From the NCBI GenBank assembly GCA_042408215.1, contig JAYFMW010000006.1, forward strand, positions 928,001 through 992,000: a stretch of DNA of 64,000 nt. The letters run 5' to 3'. Below the pieces are notes generated by a model. It saw nothing but the letters and a program-made list of their open reading frames with translations, was not told the DNA's origin and made no database searches. Positions 3,882-27,284 of this stretch are shown here, in pieces. Origin of the DNA: Microcoleus sp. (GTDB lineage Bacteria > Cyanobacteriota > Cyanobacteriia > Cyanobacteriales > Microcoleaceae). Position 1 is the stretch's first letter. The number at the start of each line of letters is the position of its first letter. The translations under genes were made by a program, and so were the position numbers.

Positions 3882-5186
3882 TCAAACTATTTTATTAATG
3901 GCCGGCTCTTGCACTGAATCGCAATTTTTTAATAGGGACAATCCGAAGAAAATTCGCAAACCCCAAATTTCAAACCAAGGCAAACCCCATCCCAATTTCA
4001 TCTTGAGGATAAAATACTTTTCAAATGCTGCTTTTGCCCAGTTTACCCAGCGTCCTTGCAAAGCATAAGAGTAACGCCGTTTACCTGTTTTTGGATCTGG
4101 TAAAACGGGGGCGGCAACATAGACAATGCCCGTATCGCCAAATTCAGCAAAACAAATCGCTTCCAAAGTTGGTGTTTTCCAACTATTTGCGATCGCACCT
4201 AATCTCACCCCAATATTGTTAGTCACGGCTAATCCCATTGCTTCCGTCATTTGTCCAGTTTTGGGTAATCCCAGCCCAGAGATTGCTTTGTTGTCGGGCA
4301 ATTCCACGCTGACACCAAGGGCATAAACTGAGGAAAATTGAGGATGTTCGTAGGTAGGTAATACGGGAATAAACCCTTTTTCATTTCCCAATCCAGGTAC
4401 TTTTTGGATAAAATCTACTCCTCGAAAAGCTGGCAGAATCATGGCATATTCAAAGGGAAGTTTTCGCCCATCAGCAAGCGCGATCGCTTCGGCATCAACT
4501 GAGGTAATTTGAGCGTTAGTTATTGCCTGAATTCCTCTTTTTTTCATCAGGTTTTCCGTGAATTCTTGAGAGTTACTTAATCCATCTAAACCTAAATGTC
4601 CCAGATAAGGTTCTGGTGTCACAAAAGTAATTGATACTTGCTCTCGCAAACCTCTGCGCCGCAACTCCCACTCTGCCATAAATAAAAACTCATAAGCTGG
4701 CCCAAAACAACTCACTCCTGCCATTGCTCCTACCACTAAATGACGGGGATTGTCTAAGAATTTTAGCCATGCTGTTCGCGCTTCTAAAGCATGATGGGGA
4801 GAGCAAACTGAGTGCGTATAACCCCCCTCTGGCCCAAGTCCGGGGACAGCATCAAATGCAAAAGAAGCACCTGTGGCGATCGCCACATAATCATAATCAA
4901 TAATCCGATTTTCTGCAACAGTGATGCGTTTAGTTTCAGGGTCAAAATCTGTGATTTTTCCTAGTATCCATTCAATCCCGTGTCGCTGAGTTAATTCAGG
5001 TACCTTTAATTGAATGTCTTCTAGGGGGTTAAGATTCAGCGCTACCCGGACCAACCCAGGAATAAAAGTAAATTCGGGGCGATCGGAAATTAACGTCACC
5101 TGATGTTCCTTCGGCAGCAGATGTCGCAGTTCGTAAGCAGTGGGAAGTCCCCCCAATCCCGCGCCAATTACAACCACTTTTGCCAT
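3882..5186 (-). CDS. sqr: Sulfide:quinone oxidoreductase, type I (SqrA-like)
   Basis: GAGLGGLPTAYELRH FAD motif; HSVC, SCFGPAYE, PKTGQMTE and ICFAEFGD motifs. Confidence 0.9.
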   Translation of the reverse strand: MAKVVVIGAGLGGLPTAYELRHLLPKEHQVTLISDRPEFTFIPGLVRVALNLNPLEDIQLKVPELTQRHGIEWILGKITDFDPETKRITVAENRIIDYDYVAIATGASFAFDAVPGLGPEGGYTHSVCSPHHALEARTAWLKFLDNPRHLVVGAMAGVSCFGPAYEFLFMAEWELRRRGLREQVSITFVTPEPYLGHLGLDGLSNSQEFTENLMKKRGIQAITNAQITSVDAEAIALADGRKLPFEYAMILPAFRGVDFIQKVPGLGNEKGFIPVLPTYEHPQFSSVYALGVSVELPDNKAISGLGLPKTGQMTEAMGLAVTNNIGVRLGAIANSWKTPTLEAICFAEFGDTGIVYVAAPVLPDPKTGKRRYSYALQGRWVNWAKAAFEKYFILKMKLGWGLPWFEIWGLRIFFGLSLLKNCDSVQEPAINKIV

Positions 5187-5390: not shown

Positions 5391-5419
5391 TTGACAATAT
5401 GACTATGTGGTTATATACT
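5391..5419 (+). promoter_or_regulatory. Sigma70-type promoter of the hdr operon
   Basis: TTGACA (5391-5396), 17-bp spacer, TATACT (5414-5419), ~55 bp upstream of the hdrC1 ATG. Confidence 0.7.
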
Positions 5420-5473: not shown

Positions 5474-6181
5474 ATGGGCAAGCTATTTAACGAGCTTAAA
5501 CAAGACATTTTGTACCAGCACGGCATGAATGCCTGCCTGAATTGCGGCATATGCACAGCAGTTTGTCCAGCGGCAGAGTTTTATGACTACTCTCCCAGAG
5601 AGGTGATGAACATTTGCCAATCTGAAGCTGACGATCTAATAGAAGAGTTACTTAAGTCAGACAAAATTTGGTATTGCGGGCAATGTTTTTCCTGTAAAAC
5701 CAGGTGTCCAAGAGGTAATAATACCGCCAATGTTATTCTGGCATTGCGCCGACTTTCCGTTCGTCACGGTTACTTTGCCGAGTCAGAAAAAGGCAGACAG
5801 CAATTGTTTGCCAAGCGAGTATTTGGGGAAAATATGCTGAAACGAGGTTATACCTTGCTGGCAGAAAATATCACCCCCGCCCACTTCCCAGAACTCGGAG
5901 AAAACTGGGAATACTATTACGAACACATGGCGGAAATGCGCGAATGGTGGGATGTGCCGATGGACTTGAAAAATAGTGCAGGTTCCCACCGAGTTATTCC
6001 TGAAAAAGACATGGAAGAATTGCGGGCAATTTATCAAGCAACCGGGGCGATCGAGTTAATGGATGCCGTAGAAAAAGGCATGGAAAAGAAACTCGGTAGC
6101 AAAGAAGAAGTCGAAAAATTCTGGGAAAACTGGGTAGAAACTGCTGATAGCAGAAACTACGAAATGGACGAAAATAAATAA
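5474..6181 (+). CDS. hdrC: Heterodisulfide reductase-like subunit C1 (2x[4Fe-4S])
   Basis: CLNCGICTAVCP and IWYCGQCFSCKTRCP motifs. Confidence 0.85.
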   Translation: MGKLFNELKQDILYQHGMNACLNCGICTAVCPAAEFYDYSPREVMNICQSEADDLIEELLKSDKIWYCGQCFSCKTRCPRGNNTANVILALRRLSVRHGYFAESEKGRQQLFAKRVFGENMLKRGYTLLAENITPAHFPELGENWEYYYEHMAEMREWWDVPMDLKNSAGSHRVIPEKDMEELRAIYQATGAIELMDAVEKGMEKKLGSKEEVEKFWENWVETADSRNYEMDENK

Positions 6182-6192
6182 GGAGAAAAATT

Positions 6193-7104
6193 ATGCAGAC
6201 CGTCAATAGCCTTAGCAATGTAAATAGCAGTCTTGATGCCACAGAAACGGCAGGACTCATCTATATGCGCGAAGAAGAAAAATTAGCGCATGATGTGTAT
6301 GTCACCCTGTACCAGCAGTGGGGATTGTCTACTTTTAACAACATCGCAAATAGCGAAAATCGTCACGAGAATAAGATTGAAACACTGCTCAATAGCTATC
6401 AGATTTCAGATTCAGTAGGTGATAATCCGGTTGGTGTTTTTGTCAATCCAGATTTACAACAATTGTACAACAATCTGGTAGCGCAAGGGAGTCAATCGCT
6501 GACTGAAGCCCTGAAGGTAGGAGTTTTAATTGAGGAGACTGACATTGCCGATTTGCAAACGCGAATTGCCCAAACAGATAACGCAGACATTCAACAAGTA
6601 TATCAACAGCTTTTAAGTGGATCGAATAATCACCTGAGTGCATTTACTTCAAACTTGACTGGCGAAACGGTTAATACCAACTCGTCTAGTTGTCCAACAA
6701 ATCAGACTCAGGGAACAACAACAGATGACACCCTAACTGGGGGGAGATGTAATCAAATGTTAGTTGGGAATCGTGGCGGCGATTTACTGACAGGAGAATT
6801 AGGAAATAATAACGTTGTTCGGGGTGGTGCTAACTCAAGATATAGCACAGATTTTTTGTTAAATTCGCCGAGTCAAATTAACAACTATCAAGTACAGGAA
6901 TTTGAGCAGAATTATCGAAATTTAGATCGGAATTTTGCGGCTCAAAACCTGCCCATTGGCTCATGCAATGCCGGGAGGAGCAGTAACTTATCTACGAACA
7001 ACTTGGGGACAGGCTTTTCTGCCAATCAAACCCAGATTGGTACTCTTAATATGAGGCCGACCAATGATTGTAATACCCAAGGTTTAATTTGCGTTAATTC
7101 CTGA
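6193..7104 (+). CDS. DUF2202 ferritin-like protein with degenerate RTX-like/low-complexity tail
   Basis: MREEEKLAHDVY, SENRH, IEETDI and GSNNHL helices; DDTLTGG and GDLLTG nonapeptide-like stretches. Confidence 0.7.
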   Translation: MQTVNSLSNVNSSLDATETAGLIYMREEEKLAHDVYVTLYQQWGLSTFNNIANSENRHENKIETLLNSYQISDSVGDNPVGVFVNPDLQQLYNNLVAQGSQSLTEALKVGVLIEETDIADLQTRIAQTDNADIQQVYQQLLSGSNNHLSAFTSNLTGETVNTNSSSCPTNQTQGTTTDDTLTGGRCNQMLVGNRGGDLLTGELGNNNVVRGGANSRYSTDFLLNSPSQINNYQVQEFEQNYRNLDRNFAAQNLPIGSCNAGRSSNLSTNNLGTGFSANQTQIGTLNMRPTNDCNTQGLICVNS

Positions 7105-7164
7105 ATTAACATCAACATCAACAGAAACTCCGAATCAAAAGACAATAAATAAGGACAAAACATA

Positions 7165-8211
7165 ATGAAAGTAACAAGACAAAATCTGGTTTGGGAAAAA
7201 CACCAAAAGCAGGTTCCAACAGTCGATGATGAAGGCGGCAAATTGTGGGGATGCTTCCGCAGTTGCTTTCTCCAAAGTGCCGCACCATACACCGAAGGGA
7301 TTGCCTATAAAATATTAAAAAACGATTTGGGCATGGACTTGCGGGAAGCACCCGGACATACTTCTTGTGGCGCAATTGGCTATCACGGAGATGTGTCAAA
7401 CCTCGAAACTCAAATGGTAGTTGCAGCGCGGAATTTTTCCGTAGCCCATCACGAATTAGGTGTTGATAATCTCTTCTCATTCTGTGTCACTTCTTTTGCG
7501 AATTACACAGAAATGATCAAACTCTGGGAAGAAGAACCAGAGTTGCGAGAATACACCGAAAAAACCTTAAAAGAAACCACCGGACGAGAATTTTGGGTTC
7601 CCCATGTTTCCGGGGGAAGACCATCTGTTGTTCATGCTTCCGATGTTTTCTATGCCAATCGGTATAAACTAGCCGCCAAAGCGAAATATAGCCTGAAGGG
7701 AATTAAAGCAGTCGATCACATCGGATGTCACTACGGAAAAATCTTTCCGGGTGAAGCAATGGGTGGGGTGGAATTTCCCCAAGTTTTAGTAGGATTACTG
7801 GCAGCTTTTGGTGCAGAAATTGTTGACTATCCAGAAAGAAGACATTGCTGTGGGATGGGTTTTCGCCAGTGTGCTTTTCCCGAAAACAGAGACTACACCG
7901 CAAGTAACGTCTACAAGAAAATGAAAGGTCTCAAAGAAGCGCACCCAGACTGCAATTTGATTCTCACTAACTGTCCCGGATGTACGGTATTTTTGGATGC
8001 TGAACAAGGAACGATTAAAGAAGTTTTGGAAGAAGAATTTAACGTCAGCGTTCTGGATTACGCACAATTGACTGGGTTAATGTTAGGCTATGACCCATTT
8101 AAGGATTGCGGACTGAATGCCAAGGCGGTTGAAATCGAGCCTTTGCTGGATAAAATCGGCATTCCTTACGATAAATCTAAGACTGCTGAACAACGCCGAA
8201 GACCATTTTAA
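7165..8211 (+). CDS. hdrB: Heterodisulfide reductase-like subunit B1 (CCG domains, first cluster motif variant)
   Basis: FRSC, HTSCGAIG, CVTSF, HIGCH, HCCGMG and NCPGC motifs. Confidence 0.85.
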   Translation: MKVTRQNLVWEKHQKQVPTVDDEGGKLWGCFRSCFLQSAAPYTEGIAYKILKNDLGMDLREAPGHTSCGAIGYHGDVSNLETQMVVAARNFSVAHHELGVDNLFSFCVTSFANYTEMIKLWEEEPELREYTEKTLKETTGREFWVPHVSGGRPSVVHASDVFYANRYKLAAKAKYSLKGIKAVDHIGCHYGKIFPGEAMGGVEFPQVLVGLLAAFGAEIVDYPERRHCCGMGFRQCAFPENRDYTASNVYKKMKGLKEAHPDCNLILTNCPGCTVFLDAEQGTIKEVLEEEFNVSVLDYAQLTGLMLGYDPFKDCGLNAKAVEIEPLLDKIGIPYDKSKTAEQRRRPF

Positions 8212-8217
8212 GAGGTG

Positions 8218-8310
8218 AGAAACCGGGTTTCTTCCTGGGCACAAAGTTTTCTGGTAAAACCTAACCATAAACCCGGTTTCTTTTCAACCAATCAAATAAA
8301 CCCGGTTTCT
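8218..8310. repeat. Cyanobacterial dispersed palindromic repeat (GAAACCGGGTTTC/AAACCCGGTTTC)
   Basis: Same core recurs at 26254-26320 and 28178-28242. Confidence 0.75.
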
Positions 8311-8335
8311 TTAATTAACTATAAAGGTAAAAAAC

Positions 8336-9406
8336 ATGAACAAACAAGTGGTCGTAATTGGTGGTGGTCCTGCTGGTCTAGCAGCGGCTGGAAAACTGCA
8401 AGACTTTGGCTATGATGTAGTTTTAATCGAGAAACAAGCCGAAGTTGGGGGACATTTAAACAAGTGGTATAAAGTGTTTCCTGATTTTACCGATGCTTCA
8501 GAAATTACCGCCAATCTCAAAGCTGGTTTAGGGAATACCAGAATTGTAAATAATGCTACGGTGACAGAGATTAAAGGTTCTGCTCCTAATTTTCAAGTGA
8601 CGGTATCAACGGGAGAAGAAATTGAGGCAGCGGCGATTTTAGTTTCGACAGGATATAAGCATTTTGATGCAACTTTAAAAGAAGAATACGGCTACGGAAT
8701 TTATGATAACTGCATCAATTCGGTAGAACTAGATGCCATGCTGAAGGCACAAAGCGTTAAAACCAGAAAGGGGAAAGTGCCGAAGAAAGTAGCGCTGATT
8801 CATTGCGTGGGTTCTCGTGATGAGAAGGTGGATAATAATTACTGTTCGCGAGTTTGCTGCACGAATGCCATTAAGGTAGGAATTGAGATTAAAGAACAGA
8901 ATCCCGATTGTGAAATTTACTGCCTTTATATGGATATTCGGGTGTTTGGTCGCGGTTATGAGGAACTGTACAGAACTTCTCAACAAGAGTTTGGAGTGCA
9001 GTTTCTTCGGGGTCGGCTTTCTGAAGCGGGTGAGAAAAATGATGGCAGTTTATTGTTGCGGCTAGAAGATACGTTAACGGCAAAACCGATGCGGTTGACG
9101 GTCGATCTTTTGGTTTTGATGGTGGGGATGGAGGGTAATACCGAGTTATCTGACGTGGCCGGTTTAACCTTGGGTTGCGATCGCTTCTATGCCACTGCCC
9201 ATCTGCAATATTCTAACAATCATTCTGCTCGATCGGGTATTTTTCTCGCCGGGGCAGCAACGGGGCCAAAAGCGATTATGGAATCCATTACCGATGGCCG
9301 ATCGGCGGCGGCAGAAATTGCCAGTTTTGTAGCGAGTAATCAAGCAAATTTGGCATCCAACCTGAATGGAAAAGCAGTAACAAAAATGGCAGCATCTCTG
9401 AAGTGA
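8336..9406 (+). CDS. hdrA: Heterodisulfide reductase-like subunit A, short form (FAD + one [4Fe-4S])
   Basis: GGGPAG, EYGYG, HCVGSRD...YCSRVCC, YMDIR..G, GIFLAGAATGPK; no ferredoxin insert. Confidence 0.9.
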   Translation: MNKQVVVIGGGPAGLAAAGKLQDFGYDVVLIEKQAEVGGHLNKWYKVFPDFTDASEITANLKAGLGNTRIVNNATVTEIKGSAPNFQVTVSTGEEIEAAAILVSTGYKHFDATLKEEYGYGIYDNCINSVELDAMLKAQSVKTRKGKVPKKVALIHCVGSRDEKVDNNYCSRVCCTNAIKVGIEIKEQNPDCEIYCLYMDIRVFGRGYEELYRTSQQEFGVQFLRGRLSEAGEKNDGSLLLRLEDTLTAKPMRLTVDLLVLMVGMEGNTELSDVAGLTLGCDRFYATAHLQYSNNHSARSGIFLAGAATGPKAIMESITDGRSAAAEIASFVASNQANLASNLNGKAVTKMAASLK

Positions 9407-9417
9407 GGTAAACAACA

Positions 9418-10008
9418 ATGGCAACTAAGAATAAGAAAAAATTTGTCTTTGGTCTGAAAGTTGATCGTCAACTCGATGGCGATCAAATGAACTCCGATTT
9501 TATTAAGAAAGTTCTGGCTGAAGGTGGCCAAGGTGCGGCGATCGCGGCTTGTATGCAATGTGGCACTTGTAGCGGTGGCTGTACCAATATTGACCTGATG
9601 GATATGTCCCCCCGAACCCTAATTTTAATGGTGCAAAGAGGGGAATGGGAAAAGGTACTTCAAAGCAATGCTTTGTGGATGTGTAGTTCCTGCTACATCT
9701 GTACCTCTCGATGTCCGCGTGGGGTGCGTCCTTCTGATGTGATTGAAGCGGTAAAAGCACTCGCAATTCGCCAAGGAATCGAGAACGATTCTACCCGATT
9801 CAATCAGATATTTGTCGAGTTAGTTCAGAAACGAGGCATTTTGTTTGAACCGGAATTAATGCACAAATATGGCGGTTTACCAGCCATGATCGAACAAGCA
9901 GAATTGGGAATTAAATTAGCTTTAAAAGGCAAAATGTCACCATTCCCAGAAAACGTAAAAGATCCCAAAAAATTTAGTGAAGCATTAGAAAAGGCAAAAA
10001 AACCATGA
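9418..10008 (+). CDS. hdrC: Heterodisulfide reductase-like subunit C2
   Basis: CMQCGTCSGGC and LWMCSSCYICTSRCPRG motifs. Confidence 0.88.
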   Translation: MATKNKKKFVFGLKVDRQLDGDQMNSDFIKKVLAEGGQGAAIAACMQCGTCSGGCTNIDLMDMSPRTLILMVQRGEWEKVLQSNALWMCSSCYICTSRCPRGVRPSDVIEAVKALAIRQGIENDSTRFNQIFVELVQKRGILFEPELMHKYGGLPAMIEQAELGIKLALKGKMSPFPENVKDPKKFSEALEKAKKP

Positions 10009-10883
10009 AATCAACCACGAAATATTCTTACTATCCCGGATGTAGTCTGCATACCACAGCTAAAGAGTTTGATATCTCAACTAGAGTGGTAATGCAGGAA
10101 TTAGGAATTGAACTAGAAGACCTCAAAGACTGGTCTTGTTGTGGCGGTTCCATCGCGGCGAGTGTTTCTCACGATGTTGGTATGGCAATGGCGGCGAGAA
10201 ATGTCGCTTTAGCCCAAAAACAAAATCTCGATTTATTAGCATCTTGTTCGGGGTGTTACAACAAGTCAGCAAGGGCGCTGAAGGCATTAAAAGAACCCAC
10301 CGAAAAAGATAGAATTATGGCTATTATGTCGGATATGGGGATCGATGTTTCTGACTATAACATCCGGGTCAGAAATGTGGTGGATGTGTTAGTAAATGAT
10401 GTGGATATTGCCTCGCGAGTAAAAAAGCCATTAACAGGTTTAAAAGTTGCCTGTTATTATGGATGTCTGTTAACTAGACCGGCAGATATCACGGGTTGGG
10501 ATTCGCCGATGTTCCCGACATCAATGGATAGATTATCTGAAATTTGTGGGGCGGAAGTAGTAGATTTTCGATCGAAAACTAAGTGCTGCGGTGGCCCGAT
10601 TCTGGTATCCAAAGAAGAGGTCGCGTTTGACCTTACGAAGAAACTCTTGGATGAGGCCCAATCTCTGGGTGCAGATTGTATTGTTTTGGCTTGTCCGTTG
10701 TGCGACACTAACCTAGAACTGCGCCAGTCGGATATCGAGAAAAAATACAACGTTTCTTACAATTTGCCAATTCTCTATATCACCGAAATCATCGGATTGG
10801 CTTTAGGAATGAAACCGAGTAAATTGGGGATGAACAAGCACATTGTTTCAGCACAACCCGTCCTCAAAAAATTGGGTTTATAA
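10005..10883 (+). CDS. hdrB: Heterodisulfide reductase-like subunit B2 (canonical CCG motifs)
   Basis: YYPGCS, WSCCGG, CSGC, YYGC, KCCGG, CPLC; ATGA overlap with hdrC2. Confidence 0.9.
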   Translation: MKSTTKYSYYPGCSLHTTAKEFDISTRVVMQELGIELEDLKDWSCCGGSIAASVSHDVGMAMAARNVALAQKQNLDLLASCSGCYNKSARALKALKEPTEKDRIMAIMSDMGIDVSDYNIRVRNVVDVLVNDVDIASRVKKPLTGLKVACYYGCLLTRPADITGWDSPMFPTSMDRLSEICGAEVVDFRSKTKCCGGPILVSKEEVAFDLTKKLLDEAQSLGADCIVLACPLCDTNLELRQSDIEKKYNVSYNLPILYITEIIGLALGMKPSKLGMNKHIVSAQPVLKKLGL

Positions 10884-10892
10884 ACCATAAAA

Positions 10893-11188
10893 ATGAAACG
10901 TAAACAGCCAATAAATTTAACGATTTATCTTCGAGCAATTGTGACTTTAGGACTTTTAAGTGCTTGGAGTTTAGTCACATTCACCGGATTTCTGCTGTGG
11001 TTGATTCCCCGGGTCAAAAGGTAGGTCATGGCTTTCTATTTTGGGGATTAACCAGACATGGATGGGGTGATATTCATTTCATCATTAGCTTAGTTGCCTT
11101 CGGTTTGACCGTGATTCATATTATCCTGTATTGGCGAGCTTTAAGCAAATTAGTTCGATATTTAATCACGGTTCATACTTCTCTCTAA
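10893..11188 (+). pseudogene. DUF4405-like membrane protein, frameshifted near 11010
   Basis: ATG 10893 frame gives a TM helix (LVTFTGFLLWLIP) then TAG at 11022; a second frame continues FWGLTRHGWGDIHF...IHIILYW. Confidence 0.65.
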
Positions 11189-11204
11189 CTTCGAGCTTGA
11201 CATT

Positions 11205-11759
11205 ATGAACAACTACAAACTCCAGAGAAACAATCATAGTACAGTTGTGAAGTGGGTTATAGCAGGAATTATAATCATCAGTAATGGCATCGTTTTTTCC
11301 TGCTTTTCCCCTTTAAAAGCACTGTCTCAAACTTCCTTAGACACTAAGACGCAACAGGCAATGATTGACGCGATTAATGATGAGTATCGCTCCAGAGCAT
11401 TGTATGATGCTGTCCTGCAAAAATTTGGGTCTCTCCGCCCTTTTAGCAACATTGTCCAAGCGGAAAATAACCATGTTAATCTTTGGATTTCCTTGTTTGC
11501 TAAGTATGGAATGGCTGTACCGACGGATTCTTTTGCCGGCAAAATGTCGGTTCCTAATACCTTACAAGCGGCCTGTCAAGCTGGGGTTGAAAATGAAATT
11601 GCTAACGTGCAAATGTACGATCGCTTTTTAGGTTTTGTCACCCAGCCAGATTTGCAGGCAGCTTTTACCCAACTGCGCCAAGTCTCTCAGGAAAAGCATT
11701 TAGCCGCCTTCCAGCGCTGTCATAATCGACCTGGTGTCGGTCAAGGTCGCAATTTTTAG
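11205..11759 (+). CDS. Ferritin-like (DUF2202-related) protein with N-terminal signal/TM segment
   Basis: DEYRSRALY, PFSNIVQAENNH, ACQAGVENEIANVQMY and HLAAFQRC. Confidence 0.7.
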   Translation: MNNYKLQRNNHSTVVKWVIAGIIIISNGIVFSCFSPLKALSQTSLDTKTQQAMIDAINDEYRSRALYDAVLQKFGSLRPFSNIVQAENNHVNLWISLFAKYGMAVPTDSFAGKMSVPNTLQAACQAGVENEIANVQMYDRFLGFVTQPDLQAAFTQLRQVSQEKHLAAFQRCHNRPGVGQGRNF

Positions 11760-11850
11760 TGATGACATGATTGTTCAAAACCGACTCAAATTTTAGCTTT
11801 TGATCGAATCGATCGGAAAAAATCTCTGTTCATTTAAACCAGTAATTATC

Positions 11851-12057
11851 ATGTTTAGCAATGTGGGAAGCCCAGATCGAATCGTTCGCTTTTTATTAGC
11901 AGCAATTCTGCTTTACAGGGGTTTGAGTATTTACCAAGGTACTGCCTTGGGAATTGGATTAGATATTGCCTCAGCTTTGCTGGCTTTCAGCGCTTTGTTT
12001 GGCTTTTGTGGCATCTATCGCGTGCTGGGGATTAGCACTTGCAAATCTCCCAACTGA
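11851..12057 (+). CDS. DUF2892 (YgaP-like) small membrane protein
   Basis: NVGSPDRIVR...FGFCGIYRVLGISTC; start taken at ATG 11851. Confidence 0.8.
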   Translation: MFSNVGSPDRIVRFLLAAILLYRGLSIYQGTALGIGLDIASALLAFSALFGFCGIYRVLGISTCKSPN

Positions 12058-12111
12058 CTTGTGTAATTTTCCGTTAAATTCCGACAACTATCAACACTCT
12101 AAAAAACAATA

Positions 12112-12645
12112 ATGGATAATAGTTTTCCTCTCGAAAGTCCTTCCATGTCTCGCCGACAGTTGCTCAATTTTCTAACTGGTACTGTCGTTGCATCTACTGC
12201 CGGTGCCGCACTTTATCCAGTCGTGAAATATTTTATCCCCCCATCAGAAAGCAGCGAAGGGGGAGCGATTATCGCCAAAGATATCTTAGGAAATCCCATT
12301 CCCGCCAGCCAAATTTTAGCCGAACCTGTGGGAACTCGCGCTTTAGTGGCGGGGTTAGCTGGCGAACCTACTTACTTAATTGTTCAAAAAGATAGTATGA
12401 TCGATCCGGTGGGAATTGTTGATAACTGCACCCATTTAGGCTGTACTTTTCCTTGGAATGGAACTGACCAAGAATTTCAATGTCCCTGTCATGGTTCTCG
12501 CTACAGTGCTGACGGTTCTGTATTACGGGGCCCGGCTCCTCTGCCTCTAAAATTAGTTAATGTTGCCGTCAAAGAAAATGCCATTTTGATTTCTCCTTGG
12601 ACAGAAATTGACCCCCGCACCGGCGAAACTCCTTGGTGGGTTTAA
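12112..12645 (+). CDS. petC: Cytochrome b6f Rieske Fe-S subunit, PetC2-type paralogue
   Basis: Tat signal SRRQLL, CTHLGC, CPCHGS, GPAPLPL, DPRTGETPWWV; not next to petA. Confidence 0.9.
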   Translation: MDNSFPLESPSMSRRQLLNFLTGTVVASTAGAALYPVVKYFIPPSESSEGGAIIAKDILGNPIPASQILAEPVGTRALVAGLAGEPTYLIVQKDSMIDPVGIVDNCTHLGCTFPWNGTDQEFQCPCHGSRYSADGSVLRGPAPLPLKLVNVAVKENAILISPWTEIDPRTGETPWWV

Positions 12646-12694
12646 ATCCAGGAATTGAACAACAAATAAAATCATCAACAACCGGAAAAAATAG

Positions 12695-13138
12695 ATGTTT
12701 CAAAGCGTCACTGAATCCCTAGCTATTGGTAATGTTACCTCATCGGAAGAACTGAGCGAAATTTACCAAAAAGGCTACCGGACAATCATCGATTTATGTA
12801 CCGCGGCAGAAGGAAACCAACTCAATGCAGAGGAAGTTAAACAACTAGGGTTTGATTATATCAGCTTACCCGTTGATAGACAAAACCTCAAACCGGAAAT
12901 TCTGCAAGGATTTATGCAGGCTGTTGATTCCCAGAACCAGCCCATTTATACCCGCTGTGCATCAGGTTTGCGAGCGGGAGTAATGACTCTATTAACTTTA
13001 GCAAATCAAGAAAATTGGACGGAACAGCAGTATTTAGAACATCGGCAAGCTTTGGGAATAGAACACAAGCCGAATTGTCCTTTAGAAGCCTTTGCTCATG
13101 AGTATTTTATCAACTCACAAAATCAAGTTAAATCTTAG
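12695..13138 (+). CDS. DUF442/Blh-like sulfurtransferase (phosphatase fold)
   Basis: GYRTIIDL and CASGLRA (CxxGxR) active loop. Confidence 0.7.
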   Translation: MFQSVTESLAIGNVTSSEELSEIYQKGYRTIIDLCTAAEGNQLNAEEVKQLGFDYISLPVDRQNLKPEILQGFMQAVDSQNQPIYTRCASGLRAGVMTLLTLANQENWTEQQYLEHRQALGIEHKPNCPLEAFAHEYFINSQNQVKS

Positions 13139-13149
13139 GAGGATTTGCC

Positions 13150-13656
13150 ATGAAAATCGCTGTAGCTAGTCAAAATAAAACAGCTATCACGGAACACGCC
13201 GGACATTGCCGTAAGTTTTGGATTTACGAAACCAACGCAACAGAAATTCTGGGAAAGCAACTTTTGGAATTATCTCCAGAACAATCTTTTCATAACAGTT
13301 CTGGCGACGAACCCCATCCTTTAGATGATGTGCAGGTTTTGATTTCTGGAGGTATGGGACGCGGTTTGGTGCGACGAATGGAACGAAAAGGAATTGAAGC
13401 CGTTATCACCAAAGAAACCGATTTAGAGAAAGCGGTAAGTGCCTATCTTGATGGTTCTTTAGTTAGGGGAGAACCGGAATGTCACGAACATGAAGGTGAA
13501 CAAAAGCATGAAGGTGAACACAAGCATGAACACAAGCATGAACACAAGCATGAAGGTGAACAAAAGCATGAAGGTGAACACAAGCAGGAAGGTGAACATA
13601 AGCATCAACATCGCCATCAACACGGTCATCAAGGCGAATCTAAGAGTGCCGTGTAA
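13150..13656 (+). CDS. NifB/NifX-family protein with His/Glu/Lys-rich C-terminal tail
   Basis: MKIAVAS...EHAGHCRKF, ISGGMGRG; repetitive HEGEQK/HEHK tail. Confidence 0.8.
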   Translation: MKIAVASQNKTAITEHAGHCRKFWIYETNATEILGKQLLELSPEQSFHNSSGDEPHPLDDVQVLISGGMGRGLVRRMERKGIEAVITKETDLEKAVSAYLDGSLVRGEPECHEHEGEQKHEGEHKHEHKHEHKHEGEQKHEGEHKQEGEHKHQHRHQHGHQGESKSAV

Positions 13657-13735
13657 TTCCCGTTATTACTGCTAGTTGGGTAGGGTGCGTGGCAGCCACG
13701 CACCCTACTATTGATGTTCATCTACTAATACAATT

Positions 13736-14191
13736 ATGTGGGCAAGTTCGATTACAGCTTATTTCCATTACTTAGGCTTCATGGTAGCTTTTGCGGCTCT
13801 CACAGTCGAGATTTTTAACTTCAAAAAAGAAATGACCCTTGATGAAGCTAAAAGAGTTGCTTTTGCCGATGCTGCTTATGGGATAGCTGCTACGGCAATT
13901 CTAATCACAGGGGTGTTGAGAGTTCTCTATTTTGGCAAGGGAACGGATTACTATTTAAATAATCCATTTTTCTATGCTAAAATGGGTGTGTTTATCCTCG
14001 TCAGTTTATTTTCCCTGTATCCAACATTTACCTTTATATCGTGGTTTAAAGACTTACAAAGTGGTCAAACTCCCCGATTAGAAATTGACCAAGTAAACCG
14101 ACTATCTTGGCTGATTAAAGGGGAATTATTCTGTTTTACTTTATTGCCACTGCTCGCAGCAGTTATGGCGAGAATTACCGGGTGGAGTTAA
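13736..14191 (+). CDS. DUF2214 family membrane protein
   Basis: DAAYG...TGVLRV..FGKGTDYYLNNPFFYAK...SLYPT. Confidence 0.8.
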   Translation: MWASSITAYFHYLGFMVAFAALTVEIFNFKKEMTLDEAKRVAFADAAYGIAATAILITGVLRVLYFGKGTDYYLNNPFFYAKMGVFILVSLFSLYPTFTFISWFKDLQSGQTPRLEIDQVNRLSWLIKGELFCFTLLPLLAAVMARITGWS

Positions 14192-14203
14192 GGGAGAAAA
14201 ATT

Positions 14204-15208
14204 ATGCAGCTTTCCAAAAACAATCTACAAGAAAGACAAAACCAAATCTACGATGTCATTGTCATTGGTGGGGGTGCGGGAGGACTTTCGGCTGGTATTT
14301 ACTTGCAACGATATCGCCTTTCTAGCTTAATTATTGATAAAGGCAAAGCGCGGTCTTTTTGGATGCAAGAATTGCACAATTATTTAGGTTTGCCTCCCGA
14401 CACTCCGGGGCGAGTTTTGTTACAACGAGGAAAAGAACATTATGACAGTTTAAATGGTGATTTTCTCAATGGTTTTGTTGAAGAAGTTGTAGACGAGGGA
14501 GAAACCTTTGCTGTCAAGGTTAAAGTCGGTCGTCAAAATAGTAGTGAGGCTGTTTTTCGGTCAAAATACTTAATAGCTGCAAGCGGAATTATCGACCATT
14601 TACCGCCTTTAGATGATCTGCGGAATGTTTTCGAATATGCCGGTTATAACTTGCACGTTTGTATGGTATGCGACGGGTATGAAATGACTGACAAAAAATG
14701 CGGTTTCTTTGCAGGTAGTGAAGCAGCTATTGAGGAAATGGTGTTTAATTTAAGTTGGTTTACGCCCTATATTACTGTCTTTACTCATGGAGTGTTTACT
14801 GTCAGCGAACCCCTGAAAGCTAAACTGCGAGAACATGGTTATCCCCTTGTAGAAACACCGATTAAACAATTTCTAGGTCAAAATCACCAAATGACAGGGG
14901 TTGAGTTAGCAGATGGAGCAATAATAGAGTTAGAAACTGGCTTAATTTCAATGGGTTCTCGCTATCACAATACCTATCTCAAGGGAATTAACTTAGAAGT
15001 CAAAGGTAACAATTTACTTACTGATAAAATGTGCCAAACTTCTCACCCCAGAATTTTTGCGATCGGGGATTTAAAAGTAGGGTTAAATCAAGTTATAATA
15101 GCAGCAGGAGATGGCGCTTTAGCGGCTACGGCAATTTGGCGAGAAATCCGTCGTGCAGCAGGAGCTAAACCTTGGGTTGAAAATCTCCCTGCTGTGACAA
15201 ATGGATAA
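14204..15208 (+). CDS. Thioredoxin-reductase-like FAD oxidoreductase
   Basis: GGGAGG, CMVCDG, TSHPRIFAIGD, QVIIAAGDGALAA. Confidence 0.8.
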   Translation: MQLSKNNLQERQNQIYDVIVIGGGAGGLSAGIYLQRYRLSSLIIDKGKARSFWMQELHNYLGLPPDTPGRVLLQRGKEHYDSLNGDFLNGFVEEVVDEGETFAVKVKVGRQNSSEAVFRSKYLIAASGIIDHLPPLDDLRNVFEYAGYNLHVCMVCDGYEMTDKKCGFFAGSEAAIEEMVFNLSWFTPYITVFTHGVFTVSEPLKAKLREHGYPLVETPIKQFLGQNHQMTGVELADGAIIELETGLISMGSRYHNTYLKGINLEVKGNNLLTDKMCQTSHPRIFAIGDLKVGLNQVIIAAGDGALAATAIWREIRRAAGAKPWVENLPAVTNG

Positions 15209-17537
15209 TATTATGGCTGAAGATATTCGCGATCGCAAAATCACTGAAATCCCCCTTGCGGAAGCTACCAAGCAACTACAAAGAGAAATTAAACAACGGG
15301 AAAAAGCCGAAGCACAACTGAAACAACAAGAGCAAAAGTTATCACTGTTGTTCAATCAAACTGCTTTAGCCGCCATTGAATGGAATGCCAATTTAGAAGT
15401 TATCGCTTGGAATTCCGCCGCCGAAAAGGTGTTCGGTTGGAGTGTCACCGAAATGCTAAGTCTTCAGGCCTCCGATTTAATCTTACCCCAAAAAGTCAAA
15501 CCGCGAGAAATTCCAATTATTAAAGAGCCACTGACATCAATTGGCGGGACGCACAATATTAATGAAAATGTCACAAAAGATGGCAAATTAATTATTTGTG
15601 AGTGGCACAATACGCCGTTAGTCGATGAAGAAGGAAATATTATCGGTATTTTTTCCTTGGTGAATGACATTACGGAACGCTGGAAAATAAGAGAAGCGTT
15701 GCGGGAAAAAGAGGAGTTTTTACGCAGTATCTACGAAGGGGTAGATTATCCTATTTTCGTGATAGATGTAGATGCTCACGGAACTTACCGTTGCGCCGAT
15801 CTGAATCCAGTTGCTAAAAATATTTTTGGCATAAATTTAGATGAAATTCCAGCGGTGTTAAGTCCAGAATTATTTCTAAGAGAACTAGCAAAAGGTGGTC
15901 TGCATTCCTCGGATAAATGCGTTCATCACGGACAGACAATTCAATATGAAAAAGTCTTGAATATAGAGGAAAAAAAGACTTGGTGGTTAACAGTAATAAC
16001 ACCCCTAAAGGATATTGATGGACGCATTTATAGGTTAGTCGGAACTTGTACTAATATTACGCAACGCAAACAATTCGAGTCAGCTTTACAACAGTCGGAA
16101 ACCAGATATAGACAACTGGCACAGCGAGAATCTATGCTCAATTGTATGGCCAGTCAAATTCGCGCTTCCCTTGATTTTAATACTGTTGTAGAAACGGCGG
16201 TACAAGAACTTTATCAAGTGTTGCAGTTGGAAAGATGTGCCTTCAGATTATATTTACCAGAAGCTATTCCCCCAGTAGCTGAAGTGATCGCGGAAGCGAA
16301 AAAAACAGACTTACCTTCCTTAAAAGGGAATCGAGTTCCCACTGCCGAAATTGCCCCGTTAATTGCTAAGATTACACGCAAAGAAGTTACCAGAATCGAA
16401 GATACTCTAACTCTAGAAGATCCCGTAGAAAGACAATTTTTTCTTGAGACTTTAGACTATCGTGCTGTCGTGTTTATACCTGTTCACACTCAGTCAGGTA
16501 AAATGGGTGCAATTAGTTGCAGTCATAGTAGTAAAACCCGATGTTGGAGTGATAGTGAAGTACAACTATTAGAAAGGGTTGCGGATCAACTCGCGATCGC
16601 TTTAACTCAAGCAGAATTATACGAACAAAGTCGAGCGATCGCGGATTCTGAAGCCAATAAAGCCTTAGAATTGCAAGAGGCTTTGCTGAAATTGCAACAC
16701 ACCCAAACTCAACTGATCCAACAGGAAAAAATGTCCAGTTTGGGACAACTGGTAGCGGGAGTCGCCCATGAAATTAATAACCCAGTTAGCTTTATTTACG
16801 GCAATATTACCCCCGCGAAAACTTATATAGAAGATTTGCTTAATCTCGTGGAGCTTTATCAGGAATCCTATCCCAATCCCACCCCTGAGATTCAAACAGA
16901 ATTGGCAGAAATTGATTGGGAGTTTATGCAGAAAGACTTTCCTAGTCTGCTCGATTCTATGAAAACTGGTGCAGAGCGGATTCGACAAATTGTCCAATCC
17001 TTGCGTAACTTTTCCCGACTAGACGAAGCCGAGATCAAACCTGTTGATTTGCATGAAAGTATTGACAGCGTTCTATTAATTCTGGAAAATCGGTTAAAAG
17101 CTAATTTAGAACGTCCGGCTATCCAGGTAGTTAAAGAATATGGCAACCTGCCTTTAGTTGAGTGCTATGCAGTCGAAATCAACCAAGTTTTTATGAATCT
17201 ACTTCTGAATGCCATTGATGCTTTAGAAGAAGTTCCGTTGAAGCAGCCAAGGATTCGGATTGTTACGGAAGTATGGGAAACCGAAGAATTAGCGATTCGC
17301 CTTATTGATAATGGAGTGGGGATTCCAGCAGAGATAAAAAAGCGAATTTTTGACCCATTTTTTACCACAAAAATTGTAGGAAAAGGAACGGGTTTAGGAT
17401 TGTCGGTTGTGTACAAAATTATCGAAAAACATGGAGGAACTATAGAATGTATTTCCGCCGATGAAAAAGTAACGGAGTTTGCGATCAAAATTCCCCAATT
17501 TCTCAAAAAAATCACCCTGAATACACCCATTGACTAA
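15201..17537 (+). CDS. PAS-PAS-GAF sensor histidine kinase
   Basis: Two PAS/PAC domains, GAF, H-box AHEINNP, N/G boxes DNGVG, DPFFTTK, GTGLGL. Confidence 0.92.
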   Translation: MDNIMAEDIRDRKITEIPLAEATKQLQREIKQREKAEAQLKQQEQKLSLLFNQTALAAIEWNANLEVIAWNSAAEKVFGWSVTEMLSLQASDLILPQKVKPREIPIIKEPLTSIGGTHNINENVTKDGKLIICEWHNTPLVDEEGNIIGIFSLVNDITERWKIREALREKEEFLRSIYEGVDYPIFVIDVDAHGTYRCADLNPVAKNIFGINLDEIPAVLSPELFLRELAKGGLHSSDKCVHHGQTIQYEKVLNIEEKKTWWLTVITPLKDIDGRIYRLVGTCTNITQRKQFESALQQSETRYRQLAQRESMLNCMASQIRASLDFNTVVETAVQELYQVLQLERCAFRLYLPEAIPPVAEVIAEAKKTDLPSLKGNRVPTAEIAPLIAKITRKEVTRIEDTLTLEDPVERQFFLETLDYRAVVFIPVHTQSGKMGAISCSHSSKTRCWSDSEVQLLERVADQLAIALTQAELYEQSRAIADSEANKALELQEALLKLQHTQTQLIQQEKMSSLGQLVAGVAHEINNPVSFIYGNITPAKTYIEDLLNLVELYQESYPNPTPEIQTELAEIDWEFMQKDFPSLLDSMKTGAERIRQIVQSLRNFSRLDEAEIKPVDLHESIDSVLLILENRLKANLERPAIQVVKEYGNLPLVECYAVEINQVFMNLLLNAIDALEEVPLKQPRIRIVTEVWETEELAIRLIDNGVGIPAEIKKRIFDPFFTTKIVGKGTGLGLSVVYKIIEKHGGTIECISADEKVTEFAIKIPQFLKKITLNTPID

Positions 17538-17541
17538 TGCT

Positions 17542-18369
17542 ATGAAAACCTCGTTTATCCTCACTGTTTTAGTGGAAAATACCTCTTCCGGTAGAGGATT
17601 ATTGGGAGAACATGGACTATCTTATCTAATAGAAGCCGGTGAGTACCGAATTTTATTCGATACAGGACAAGGATTGGCATTACAACATAATGCTAAAGAG
17701 TTGGGAATTTCTTTACATAATTTAGATGCTGTTGTCCTCAGTCATGGTCATTACGATCGTGCAGGTGGTTTAATCACAGTATTAGATGAATGTCATCTCA
17801 CCAAATTATTCCTGCATCCATCGGCACTGCCACCCAAATTTAGCAATCGAGGTGATATTGGTTCTCCTATCCAAGATAAAGATACTCTGGAAAAGAAATT
17901 TCGCCAGTTAATTTGGACAGATAAACCAACAGAAATTATCCCTGGAGTTTATGTAACTGGTACTATTCCTCGACTTCATCCTTTGGAGGATACGGGGGGT
18001 GATTTTTGGCAAGATTCCCAGCATGATCGAGTTGATTTACTCTTAGATGATCAAGCGTTATTTATTGATTCACCAGAGGGTTTAGTGGTGGTTTTAGGGT
18101 GCGCTCATGCGGGAGTAATTAACACTCTAAATTACATTGCACAAATTACTGGAAAAGACAAGTTTTATGCTATAATTGGGGGAATGCACCTTTTGAATGC
18201 TAGTCGCGATCGCCTGCAAGCAACGGCAGAAACCTTGACCAAATATGACGTGCAAATAATAGGTGCTAACCACTGCACAGGAATGACCGCCATAGCTTTT
18301 TTGTGGCATCAGTTGGCGGGAAAGTGTATCAGTTGCTCCGTTGGTACTCGCTTAAAATTTGGCATTTAA
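17542..18369 (+). CDS. MBL-fold metallohydrolase (COG1237-like)
   Basis: EHGLS, FDTG, SHGHYD(R), DDQAL, GCAHAG, GGMHL and HCTG motifs. Confidence 0.8.
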   Translation: MKTSFILTVLVENTSSGRGLLGEHGLSYLIEAGEYRILFDTGQGLALQHNAKELGISLHNLDAVVLSHGHYDRAGGLITVLDECHLTKLFLHPSALPPKFSNRGDIGSPIQDKDTLEKKFRQLIWTDKPTEIIPGVYVTGTIPRLHPLEDTGGDFWQDSQHDRVDLLLDDQALFIDSPEGLVVVLGCAHAGVINTLNYIAQITGKDKFYAIIGGMHLLNASRDRLQATAETLTKYDVQIIGANHCTGMTAIAFLWHQLAGKCISCSVGTRLKFGI

Positions 18370-18412
18370 AAGCGGTAATTTGACGAGTTTATTTAGTTTT
18401 TAGGACAAAGAT

Positions 18413-18874
18413 ATGCGAAGAATTTTTCTAAAATTATTGCTGGGGATGTTATTATCTATTGGGATTTTGTCGATCGCGCCCATGCCAGTCATAGCCGCAG
18501 GTTCGATGCCCCAAGCGCTATCAGACGCGATCGATAATTTTTTGACTTCTCTTCCAAGCGATTATTACACTGTGATGAAGATCGAGAACCTTAAAGAGAA
18601 GATCAAAACTGATAATCCTCTATTAATTGATGTCAGACAGCCTGCTGAATACGCCTCTGGACACATTCCCAATGCCATTAATATCTCCTTGCAAACCTTA
18701 GCCGAAAATCTCGATAAAATTCCCAAAGATCGCCCTGTAGTTCTCTATTGCACAAGCGGCTATCGAACGGGAATGGGAGTTATGACTTTGGAAATGTTAG
18801 GATATACTAACGTGCAGGCTTTTCCTCCTAGCATTCAAGGTTGGAAAGCGGCGGGTGAACCTTTGGAAAAGTAG
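18413..18874 (+). CDS. Exported rhodanese-domain sulfurtransferase
   Basis: Signal peptide; IDVRQPAEYASGHIPNA, YCTSGYR, GWKAAG. Confidence 0.88.
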   Translation: MRRIFLKLLLGMLLSIGILSIAPMPVIAAGSMPQALSDAIDNFLTSLPSDYYTVMKIENLKEKIKTDNPLLIDVRQPAEYASGHIPNAINISLQTLAENLDKIPKDRPVVLYCTSGYRTGMGVMTLEMLGYTNVQAFPPSIQGWKAAGEPLEK

Positions 18875-18968
18875 GATGTACTCACATCTTGCCAATAGAT
18901 CAACCTAAAAGCCTAGATTTTTCCTTAAGAAACCCGGTCGATCAGGTTAATGAAAAAGAGGAATACTT

Positions 18969-19511
18969 ATGCTCAGATGTCGTGTCAGAAAAATATTTTC
19001 CCGATTCCTATTGCTGGGAGCCTTAGTGTTGAGTGTATTCCTGGGGTTAGGAATAGTAACTACTCCCCATGCAGCCGCCGCAATTCGACAACTAGAAGAA
19101 GCACCAGGGCAAGTGGTTTATCAATCCCGACAAACCCTCCAAGATCAACAAGGAAATACCTGGCAGGCGATCGCGTTCAAACGCATTCGTCCTCATGGTA
19201 AAACGAGTTTGGAACTACGTTTAGTTGGTTTCCCCGGTGTGGCAGAAATCGCTCGCGCTCAACCCCTATTGTTGACTAATTCACTGGGTAAAACGCTGAC
19301 GGCTGCCGATGTTTCCAGCGATATTTTCACTGATGGAACCGCTCCCCAACCTAATGTAGGACAGTATGATATTCAGCCGTTGTTACCGCAGTTGCAGGCA
19401 GAAATTCCCCTAAAGTTGACGCTACCAACGCGAGGCGGTGAAGCGATTAATCTATCAGTTCCACCATCTTTTGTACAAGAGTGGCAAACTCTTTTTTATT
19501 CAAGAGAGTAA
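18969..19511 (+). CDS. DUF3122 family exported protein
   Basis: EEAPGQVVYQSRQTLQD...WQAIAFKR...LRLVGFPG. Confidence 0.75.
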   Translation: MLRCRVRKIFSRFLLLGALVLSVFLGLGIVTTPHAAAAIRQLEEAPGQVVYQSRQTLQDQQGNTWQAIAFKRIRPHGKTSLELRLVGFPGVAEIARAQPLLLTNSLGKTLTAADVSSDIFTDGTAPQPNVGQYDIQPLLPQLQAEIPLKLTLPTRGGEAINLSVPPSFVQEWQTLFYSRE

Positions 19512-24845: not shown

Positions 24846-26159
24846 TTATTTTTTCCACTGGATCAACTTGATGTAATCTCCTTCAAACTGCTCTCCTTTC
24901 AGCATCCGATTCCAATAAATCCAAGGCAAAGCAGTAGTTTTCATCTTCCACATAATCCAGCTTTCTTGCACAGGGTTGAGGGGAAAACTAGAAAGCACAG
25001 TACCACTATAACCATCAAATTCGGCCATGATTGTCTTGCCATAACCAGTGATTAAAGGACAGCAAGTATAGCCGTCATACTTATGTAATAATGGTTTGGA
25101 GTCTATTAAAGCTAGTAAATTTTCTGCTACGATCGGTGCTTGTTTGCGAGCTGCTGCTGCTGTCTTAGAAGTTGGCAGCGAAGAAGCATCCCCCAAGCTA
25201 AATACGTTGGGATATCGATTGTGCTGGAGCGTGTATTTATCTACATCTACCCAGCCATAGGAACTACCGGGAACGGCCAAAGGGCTTTGTTTAATAAAGT
25301 CAGGAGCGCTTTGCGGCGGTGTGACGTGAATCATTTCGTACTTGTGGGTGACCTCATCGACAACAGCACCGTTATCATCGAAAACATCAAAAACTGCTTC
25401 TTTGGTTTCAGGTTTAATTTCCTTCAAATTGTGCCGGAACTTAACATCAATTTCCCGTTGTTGGACGACTTTATCTAATAGTGATGAATACTCCGGTACG
25501 GAAAACATTTTGGTTGCTGGTGTGAGAAACATCACGTTAGTGCGCTGACGGACTCCCAATTTACTGCGGAAGGTATCATCTGCCATGTACATGACTTTTT
25601 GCGGCGCACCACCACATTTTACCGGAGTGTTGGGAAAGGTAAATAGAGCATTTCCACCTTGGAAATTTTTGATTAGTTCCCAGGTATAAGGTGCGTAATT
25701 AGGAGCATAATTGCTAGTAACACCATCTTTTCCGAGCGCTTCTCTCAGTCCTTTAATTAAATGCCAGTCCAACTGAATGCCGGGACTGACAATTAAGTAA
25801 TCATACTCAACCAGGATGCCTTCTTTGGTGAGGACGGCATTGTTTTCTGGGTCTAATTTAACCACTCGGTCTGCGATCCAAGTCGCTTGTCGAGGAATGA
25901 AATCTTTTTTATCCCTCACTGTATCCTCAATTTGGAATACTCCTCCGCCTGTCAGCGTCCAACCGGGTTGGTAATACTGCTTCTTCGATGGCTCGATGAT
26001 GGCAATATCTAGGGATTTGTTTTTTTTCAATAACATAGAGGCGGTGGGAAGTCCGGCAGACCCGCCCCCGATGAAAACGATTTGGTGGTGCAGTGTCTTG
26101 GTAATGGCGGGGGTTGCGGACGCTGGAGTCTGGGACTGTTGGGAATTTGAGGTGATCAT
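24846..26159 (-). CDS. sqr: Sulfide:quinone oxidoreductase, type II (SqrB/eukaryote-like)
   Basis: YYQPGWTL, KCGGAPQK, PTSKTAAA, YDGYTCCPLITG, LPWIYWN. Confidence 0.88.
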   Translation of the reverse strand: MITSNSQQSQTPASATPAITKTLHHQIVFIGGGSAGLPTASMLLKKNKSLDIAIIEPSKKQYYQPGWTLTGGGVFQIEDTVRDKKDFIPRQATWIADRVVKLDPENNAVLTKEGILVEYDYLIVSPGIQLDWHLIKGLREALGKDGVTSNYAPNYAPYTWELIKNFQGGNALFTFPNTPVKCGGAPQKVMYMADDTFRSKLGVRQRTNVMFLTPATKMFSVPEYSSLLDKVVQQREIDVKFRHNLKEIKPETKEAVFDVFDDNGAVVDEVTHKYEMIHVTPPQSAPDFIKQSPLAVPGSSYGWVDVDKYTLQHNRYPNVFSLGDASSLPTSKTAAAARKQAPIVAENLLALIDSKPLLHKYDGYTCCPLITGYGKTIMAEFDGYSGTVLSSFPLNPVQESWIMWKMKTTALPWIYWNRMLKGEQFEGDYIKLIQWKK

Positions 26160-27273: not shown

Positions 27274-27284
27274 GGATTTAGATC

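Follow-up and report, generated by a model that had tools for sequence, protein, structure and literature searches.

The described systems closest to the one considered here are the heterodisulfide reductase (Hdr) complexes of two kinds: (i) type I sHdr-LbpA of Hyphomicrobium denitrificans, Aquifex and Acidithiobacillus (PDB 6TJR), and (ii) methanogen MvhAGD-HdrABC and bacterial FlxABCD-HdrABC (5ODC). Type I sHdr has been defined as including the H protein, and no cyanobacterial row appears in the supplementary table of Tanabe et al. (PMC11094781). We analyzed a 64,000-nucleotide window (positions 928001-992000 of contig C6) from the genome of Microcoleus sp., a cyanobacterium (7.36 Mb; completeness 99.98%), and focused on its cluster of five genes, hdrC1B1A-C2B2. 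There is, in our view, about an even chance that these genes represent a cyanobacterial sister lineage of sHdr without a lipoate carrier, which would catalyze the oxygen-independent oxidation of persulfide, made by sulfide:quinone oxidoreductase (SQR), to sulfite and hand the electrons to a small-molecule disulfide or persulfide. We infer both the chemistry and its direction.

The gene cluster itself is already in print, without a function. A five-gene cluster, with substrates unknown, is mentioned for Cyanobacterium DS4 (PMC12060301, in part), and hdrA2B2C2 for Phormidium pseudopriestleyi, where bifurcation was suggested (PMC8002359, in part). The available portions of PMC5061849, PMC13384644, PMC13209566 and PMC7784965 give no function to cyanobacterial Hdr, and no functional study of the cyanobacterial cluster was found in the literature searched. 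According to the accessible text of two further reports (PMC5972617, PMC5776472), a sulfite-forming or second sulfide-oxidizing cyanobacterial enzyme is still unidentified.

Genetic organization and conservation of the hdr core

A first-pass annotation of the window had reported a run of 18 co-oriented genes, and this stands: 18 open reading frames (ORFs) of the + strand occupy positions 5474..19511, with gaps of at most 124 bp (11 bp between hdrA and hdrC2) and three overlaps (-4, -8 and -8). The ORFs, assigned by Pfam and NCBIfam scans, occur in the order hdrC1, DUF2202, hdrB1, hdrA, hdrC2, hdrB2, DUF4405, a second DUF2202-like gene, DUF2892, petC, DUF442, NifX-domain, DUF2214, TrxB-fold flavoprotein, PAS/GAF kinase, MBL hydrolase, rhodanese and DUF3122. 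The first six, together with the preceding divergent gene, are as follows:

3882..5186, - strand: type I SQR, divergent from hdrC1; top PDB matches are the SQRs 3SZ0 (E 3e-88) and 3HYV (E 8e-82), which we take to be of type I
5474..6181, + strand: HdrC1, with two CxxCxxCxxxCP motifs
6193..7104, + strand: DUF2202 ferritin-like protein (PF09968, E 3e-46), a variable insertion between hdrC1 and hdrB1
7165..8211, + strand: HdrB1 of the sHdrB1 type, with Ser at two distal-cluster Cys positions and an intact proximal cluster; predicted sulfane-oxidizing site
8336..9406, + strand: short HdrA (class A0), with an FAD site, Cys 157, 170, 174 and 175, no ferredoxin domains, and Lys180 corresponding to Lys409
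9418..10008, + strand: HdrC2, with two 4Fe-4S motifs
10005..10883, + strand: HdrB2, with both CCG domains and all ten cluster Cys; predicted disulfide or persulfide reductase

A scan with HdrA yielded 33 loci, of which 31 (67-93% identity) were counted and two deltaproteobacterial ones (~30%) were left out. With a gene scored as present at an identity of at least 40%, the core was represented by hdrA and hdrB1 in 31 loci each, hdrC2 and hdrB2 in 30 each, and hdrC1 in 28 (three contigs begin within the cluster). The neighbours comprise petC (16 loci), persulfide dioxygenase (PDO; 11), SulP (11), a second-type SQR (10), DUF2892 (10), DUF2214 (9) and type I SQR (8), followed by DUF442, rhodanese and NifX (7 each), MBL (5), TrxB-like and DUF3122 (3 each) and the kinase (2; a close orthologue in only one). 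The DUF2202 insertion is found in 2 of the 31. An SQR gene accompanies the core in 17 of the 31 loci; among the 15 loci of at least 19 kb, core genes are present in 14-15, SQR in 10, DUF442 in 5 and TrxB-like in 3. In three loci (L021, L022 and L027) and on a plasmid of strain PCC 7003, sqr begins at most 20 bp after hdrB2, and the plasmid unit consists of hdrC1B1AC2B2-sqr alone, with no other sulfur gene annotated nearby. The five genes hdrC1B1A-C2B2 make up the conserved unit, which is often located beside an SQR gene.

Some genomes carry a second, lone copy of hdrB1 (86%) about 10 kb from the core (L002:19239-20279, L123:6325-7365 and a copy on contig C33 of genome G395). Two clusters, L124:11072-12250 and L019:8911-11071, are apparently decaying: either hdrA is truncated and hdrC2 absent, or hdrB1 is split and no C2B2 was found within 10 kb.

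Cofactor sites and ancestry of the Hdr subunits

The cyanobacterial proteins share with type I sHdr the order C1-B1-A-C2-B2, a short HdrA, altered cluster ligands in HdrB1, both non-cubane sites in HdrB2 and the solubility of all subunits; an N-terminal hydrophobic segment was found in none of the five. Ser occupies two distal-cluster Cys positions of HdrB1 in 32 of 32 cyanobacterial sequences, as in sHdrB1-type references, and HdrB2 retains all ten cluster Cys. HdrA aligns with PDB 6TJR in one full-length stretch and with methanogen HdrA in split matches, its ferredoxin domains being absent. The folds, the FAD-proximal Lys409 and the HdrB2 cluster ligands are likewise common to the Mvh/Flx-HdrABC complexes, from which the cyanobacterial system differs in the lack of MvhD/Flx, of the N-terminal and ferredoxin domains of HdrA, and in having two different HdrB/C pairs.

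The named organisms among the best 120 matches to HdrB2 are all cyanobacteria. The nearest non-cyanobacterial relatives of HdrB1 belong to Altiarchaeales (69-73% identity), followed by Bacteroidales (41-46%); identity to HdrB1 of type I sHdr is only 29-36%. In a 65-sequence FastTree phylogeny of HdrB1, rooted on HdrB2 (one in three cyanobacterial and one in eight Bacteroidales sequences were sampled), cyanobacteria and Altiarchaeales (support 1.0) group with Bacteroidales (1.0). The resulting clade is not nested among sHdrB1; it is sister (0.982) to a clade containing an Acidithiobacillus plasmid protein and protein P0179 (listed supports 1.0, 0.985 and 0.982). The sHdrB1 references of this tree are proxies, and their labels are partly our assumption. 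On a plasmid of Acidithiobacillus ferrooxidans (L039:9287-12990), an isolated sHdrB1-type gene and a GcvH-like gene whose product contains Cys are found among hemerythrin and hcp genes. True sHdr loci, looked for as a source of sHdrH and LipS sequences, were found in 0 of 251 genomes, and plasmids yielded no more than this type of solitary Acidithiobacillus hdrB. The Altiarchaeales proteins (P0008, P0009 and P0289-P0292) are encoded in several copies per contig, and their likeness to the cyanobacterial HdrB1 suggests transfer between domains.

The Bacteroidales cluster resembles the cyanobacterial one in its C1-B1-short A module (42-45% median identity), in the retained Lys409 and in the lack of LbpA. 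It differs in its second half, which consists of a 110-aa HdrC2 and a protein of ~610 aa (dicluster and CCG domains, preceded by a probable membrane segment at the N-terminus) where the cyanobacterial cluster has the soluble C2B2 pair, and in its neighbour, cysteate synthase, in place of the SQR that adjoins the cyanobacterial core. Among 80 loci of this type (L040-L119), C1 is present in 75, B1 in 80, short A in 71, short C2 in 63 and the HdrD-like protein in 61; GcvH occurs in 1, a MarR gene in 17, and cysteate synthase, which consumes sulfite, in 12. Experimental work on the hdrC1-B1-A-C2-hdrD-like cluster was not found in the literature searched.

Absence of the usual Hdr partners

The first-pass annotation had also claimed that genes for the usual Hdr partners are lacking from the run. 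This holds for the run, in which the Pfam and NCBIfam scans gave no GCV_H, TusA, DsrE, FlpD/MvhD or lipoate-ligase match, and, for LbpA, DsrE and MvhD/Flx, also for the genome. The only GCV_H match in the genome lies between gcvT and gcvP and contains no Cys; the Cys-bearing GcvH-like query from Acidithiobacillus retrieved the same protein alone, and neither search revealed an LbpA with two conserved Cys. DsrE, DrsE_2, DsrC, FlpD/MvhD and FlxA-type domains gave 0 matches each genome-wide, control genomes being positive in every search. A single TusA is encoded after dnaJ on contig C3, unlinked to hdr. The genome encodes LipB, one LplA-like protein and two LipA, none of them inside the hdr cluster, in which no dedicated lipoate ligase gene was found; the 11-bp gap between hdrA and hdrC2 leaves no room there for the sHdrH gene of type I sHdr. 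In these searches, no full lbpA/lipoate or mvhD/flx set was found elsewhere in the genome.

The other hdrB1-bearing cyanobacterial genomes agree: MvhD was found in 0 of 16, one strong GcvH match in each of 16 (two also with a marginal 22-bit match), and DsrE in 2 of 17 (the studied genome counted), on contigs other than the hdr contig. Therefore the cyanobacterial Hdr has a different architecture, as had been proposed, with a core for which no LbpA, DsrE, MvhD or Flx is encoded in the genome studied. Compared with type I sHdr, it is sHdr-built and likely sHdr-like in action; it stands outside that group with respect to H, LbpA, the linkage of DsrE/TusA and its position in the tree.

The same data bear on another explanation, namely that this is a canonical sHdr that borrows host lipoyl proteins (GcvH or an E2 lipoyl domain) and lipoamide dehydrogenase and passes electrons to NAD+. 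The required host proteins GcvH, LipB, the LplA-like protein and two LipA are available, and HdrB2 is of the intact disulfide-reductase type. We nevertheless consider this improbable: GcvH is single-copy, is encoded within gcvT-H-P, has no Cys in contrast to the two conserved Cys of LbpA, and was never found near hdr in the loci examined. LbpA, moreover, failed to replace GcvH in Bacillus subtilis (PMC6067878, in part; the reverse replacement is not reported there). The suggestion of the first-pass annotation that host GcvH might be used is thus unlikely to be correct; its other suggestion, the use of glutathione, is plausible.

Predicted function

In the reading that we prefer, SQR would oxidize sulfide to polysulfide or glutathione persulfide, and HdrB1 would oxidize this sulfane sulfur to sulfite. 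Electrons would pass from HdrC1 through the FAD and the 4Fe-4S pair of HdrA to HdrC2 and then to HdrB2, which is predicted to reduce a small-molecule disulfide or persulfide instead of lipoamide. Sulfite may then combine with sulfane sulfur to form thiosulfate; with oxygen available, the task of the complex would fall to PDO. Three features favour oxidation to sulfite: the sHdrB1-type character of HdrB1, the presence of SQR as the most informative neighbour, and the position of the sister cluster beside a sulfite-consuming enzyme.

A special form of this reading, which we hold tentatively and count within it, is that Hdr acts as a self-contained sulfane-sulfur disproportionase without an outside partner. 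HdrB1 would oxidize one persulfide to sulfite and HdrB2 would reduce two persulfides to sulfide, the two halves being joined by an internal C1-A-A'-C2 wire; re-oxidation of the sulfide by SQR would pull the reaction. Persulfide disproportionation is endergonic under standard conditions and would proceed only as long as sulfide is kept low by SQR. If this form is true, all electrons of sulfide-to-thiosulfate oxidation would reach plastoquinone via SQR, and the complex would be the sulfite-forming enzyme that is missing from anoxygenic photosynthesis in cyanobacteria.

The distribution of the genes is consistent with a link to SQR. In the phylum, hdrB1 was found in 17 of 401 genomes (about 4%) from 9 families. 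Type I SQR is encoded by 12 of these 17 as against 26 of 384 others (restricted to the 30 listed families, 11 of 16 versus 26 of 168), PDO by 17 of 17 versus 83 of 384, and a petC2-type gene by 15 of 17 versus 31 of 384.

Several points weigh against oxidation to sulfite by this complex. The co-occurrence counts are descriptive only, as kin are not independent; type I SQR is missing from five of the 17 hdr genomes, and 26 genomes have SQR without hdrB1. Shared habitat may be part of the link between SQR and hdr, because the low-oxygen petC co-occurs with hdr just as strongly (15 of 17). HdrB1 and HdrB2 were found in Coleofasciculus PCC 7420, and de Wit's thiosulfate-forming strain is SAG 31.92, not PCC 7420. 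Altiarchaeales and Bacteroidales, the nearest kin, are not known to be sulfur oxidizers. In RNA run X4 the hdr core, and not the sqr considered here, is deeply covered. HdrA retains, as Lys180, the Lys409 that marks bifurcating HdrA and is Asn in sHdrA of H. denitrificans (6TJR). Finally, the first-pass annotation had described LbpA as essential to characterized sHdr, which agrees with the result for Hyphomicrobium, the only tested system (PMC6067878, in part).

The lysine also speaks for the reverse direction: in the dark and without oxygen, fermentation would supply electrons, by way of ferredoxin, NAD(P)H or Hox hydrogenase, for the reduction of polysulfide or persulfide to sulfide, which SQR would recover in the light. 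Dark sulfur reduction is known in cyanobacteria. Lys409, linked to bifurcating flavins in the accessible parts of three reports (PMC12054007; PMC13514486, PMC10734219), is retained in 32 of 34 cyanobacterial HdrA and in 69 of 69 from Bacteroidales loci. The genome contains nifJ, pflBA and hoxYH with hoxF, NiFe hydrogenase is encoded in 15 of 17 hdr genomes (a figure without a base rate), and the nearest relatives are anaerobes. This direction is possible, and we regard it as rather unlikely, given that there is no MvhD/Flx adaptor, HdrA has no ferredoxin domain, and Glu356 is replaced by Asp (Asp133). In addition, Hox has its own diaphorase, its genes lie apart from hdr on a different contig, two of the 17 hdr genomes yielded no Hox match, and HdrB1 carries the sHdrB1-type cluster site. 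The fermentation genes form a cluster on contig C5 (433000-450200; L122), comprising nifJ, hoxYH, hypE and pflBA, then hoxF; an orphan HoxYH serving as MvhAG was considered and rejected, as hoxF is present nearby.

The five-gene unit is a testable candidate for the missing sulfite- or thiosulfate-forming enzyme of sulfide-driven cyanobacterial photosynthesis, and it occurs in cultured strains (the PCC 7003 plasmid and Coleofasciculus PCC 7420). It also challenges the view that no sHdr-like complex can do without LbpA and TusA/DsrE, and it points to a wider LbpA-less lineage, shared with Altiarchaeales and Bacteroidales, which is missed by H-dependent definitions of sHdr.

Promoter, putative operator and transcripts

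Two elements were identified upstream of hdrC1:

5391..5419, + strand: sigma-70-type promoter TTGACA-17-TATACT, the top site (11/12) in 3600-21000
5397..5416, no strand assigned: palindrome ATATGAC-N6-GTTATAT, filling the promoter spacer; candidate ArsR-family repressor site

The palindrome recurs, within 2 mismatches, in 26 of 42 regions upstream of hdrC1 (shuffled mean 0.27); after removal of three duplicates and of the eight regions from which the consensus was derived, the held-out figure is 16 of 31. The second-best palindrome of the genome is located 65 bp before a gene encoding an ArsR-family protein on contig C12 (30312-30656, - strand), homologs of which are encoded in three hdr loci (L004, L006 and L014). 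This protein, with Cys in both the second and the last helical regions, is a candidate sulfane-sensing repressor that may bind the hdr palindrome. The hdr core is probably transcribed as a separate unit, controlled by a repressor of the ArsR type.

RNA contigs give a weak hint in the same direction. In sediment RNA libraries containing relatives, contigs from runs X5 and X6 start 34-35 bases before the hdrC1 start and overlap unbroken to about 10700-10850, the accessory genes lying on separate, reordered contigs. Cover in X4 is similar, and one low-depth contig bridges past hdrB2 to the next genes. Such contigs can neither rank genes nor prove one transcript, and uncovered stretches prove nothing; moreover, runs X4-X7 are possibly one campaign and X1-X3 possibly reflect DNA. 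Promoter and terminator totals lie within about two standard deviations of shuffles. The hairpin at 13679-13709 was rejected as a specific terminator, as 27 similar copies show it to be a member of a repeat family.

Genes downstream of the core

The remaining genes of the run are:

10893..11188, + strand: DUF4405 membrane protein gene, frameshifted near 11010 (reading frame and family scan)
11205..11759, + strand: second DUF2202-like protein, with an N-terminal hydrophobic segment
11800..13138, + strand: low-oxygen cassette of DUF2892/YgaP, petC2-type Rieske protein (12112-12645) and DUF442 rhodanese-like protein (12695-13138, CASGLR)
13150..14191, + strand: NifX/FeMo-co-domain protein with a His-rich tail, and DUF2214 membrane protein (family scan)
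14204..15208, + strand: Slr0600/Gll2934-family flavoprotein of the TrxB fold (PDB 5JRI, E 3e-129; 5N0J, E 6e-122)
15201..19511, + strand: PAS-PAS-GAF histidine kinase, MBL-fold hydrolase, rhodanese with a predicted signal peptide, and DUF3122

According to the first-pass annotation, DUF442, rhodanese, DUF2892 and the TrxB-like protein replace the sulfur and electron carriers of Hdr. Their occurrence in 7, 7, 10 and 3 of the 31 loci, respectively, against 28-31 for the core, does not bear this out, and several loci (L013, L014, L030 and L038) contain the core with none of them. We therefore consider it very improbable that all 18 genes form a single operon with dedicated Hdr carriers. In favour of such an operon are the tight spacing, the CASGLR motif of DUF442, the presence of Rhd442 beside sHdr in three Hyphomicrobiaceae clusters and the low-depth RNA contig that joins hdrB2 to the next genes. 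Opposed to it are the patchy occurrence of each proposed carrier (3-10 of 31 loci), the loci with only the core, the published low-oxygen role of the cassette elsewhere and the reshuffled gene order in relatives.

The DUF2892, second petC and rhodanese-like genes match the layout of a microoxia-associated cluster of Acaryochloris (AM1_0449-0451), with a similar set in Synechocystis (slr1184-1185) (PMC5295598, in part). The likeness lies in the adjoining DUF2892, extra petC and rhodanese-like genes; the difference is that the cassette here follows hdrB2 and not psbA1. The housekeeping petC-petA pair is found on contig C17. The downstream genes are best read as a variable, reshuffled low-oxygen and sulfide island, not as genes for dedicated subunits. 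An auxiliary role of the DUF442 protein in sulfur transfer is possible, Rhd442 being a known, rare companion of sHdr (PMC11094781, in part). In nine genomes without hdrB1 (e.g. G271, G044 and G059), a petC2-type gene lies at most 9 kb from type I sqr, which suggests a dedicated SQR-linked Rieske protein.

The TrxB-like protein has full-length similarity to the Slr0600/Gll2934 family, with CxxC present; in 4 of 16 hdr genomes no copy of its gene was found. N-terminal hydrophobic segments occur in the rhodanese (as the predicted signal peptide), DUF3122 and second DUF2202 proteins. The DUF4405 gene carries a one-base frameshift and is intact in the related locus L002; it is either a pseudogene or an assembly error. 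The NifX-domain protein (13150-13656) ends in a repetitive His/Glu/Lys tail, whose length varies among relatives.

The surrounding sulfur island

A further group of genes belongs to the same island and would constitute its oxygen-dependent branch:

24846..30108: second SQR (- strand); PDO-like MBL protein, YeeE/YedE pair and SulP (+ strand)

The PDO and type II SQR labels derive from family matches and context. The G+C content of the island (42-43%, versus 45% for the genome) and its HIP1 density, equal to that of the genome, proved uninformative, so that foreign origin could not be judged by composition; nevertheless, hdrB1 was found in none of 19 genomes from the same genus. The island and its vicinity contain two genes for TnpB and one transposase-like ORF, at 21740-22924, 30147-31340 and 42803-44236.

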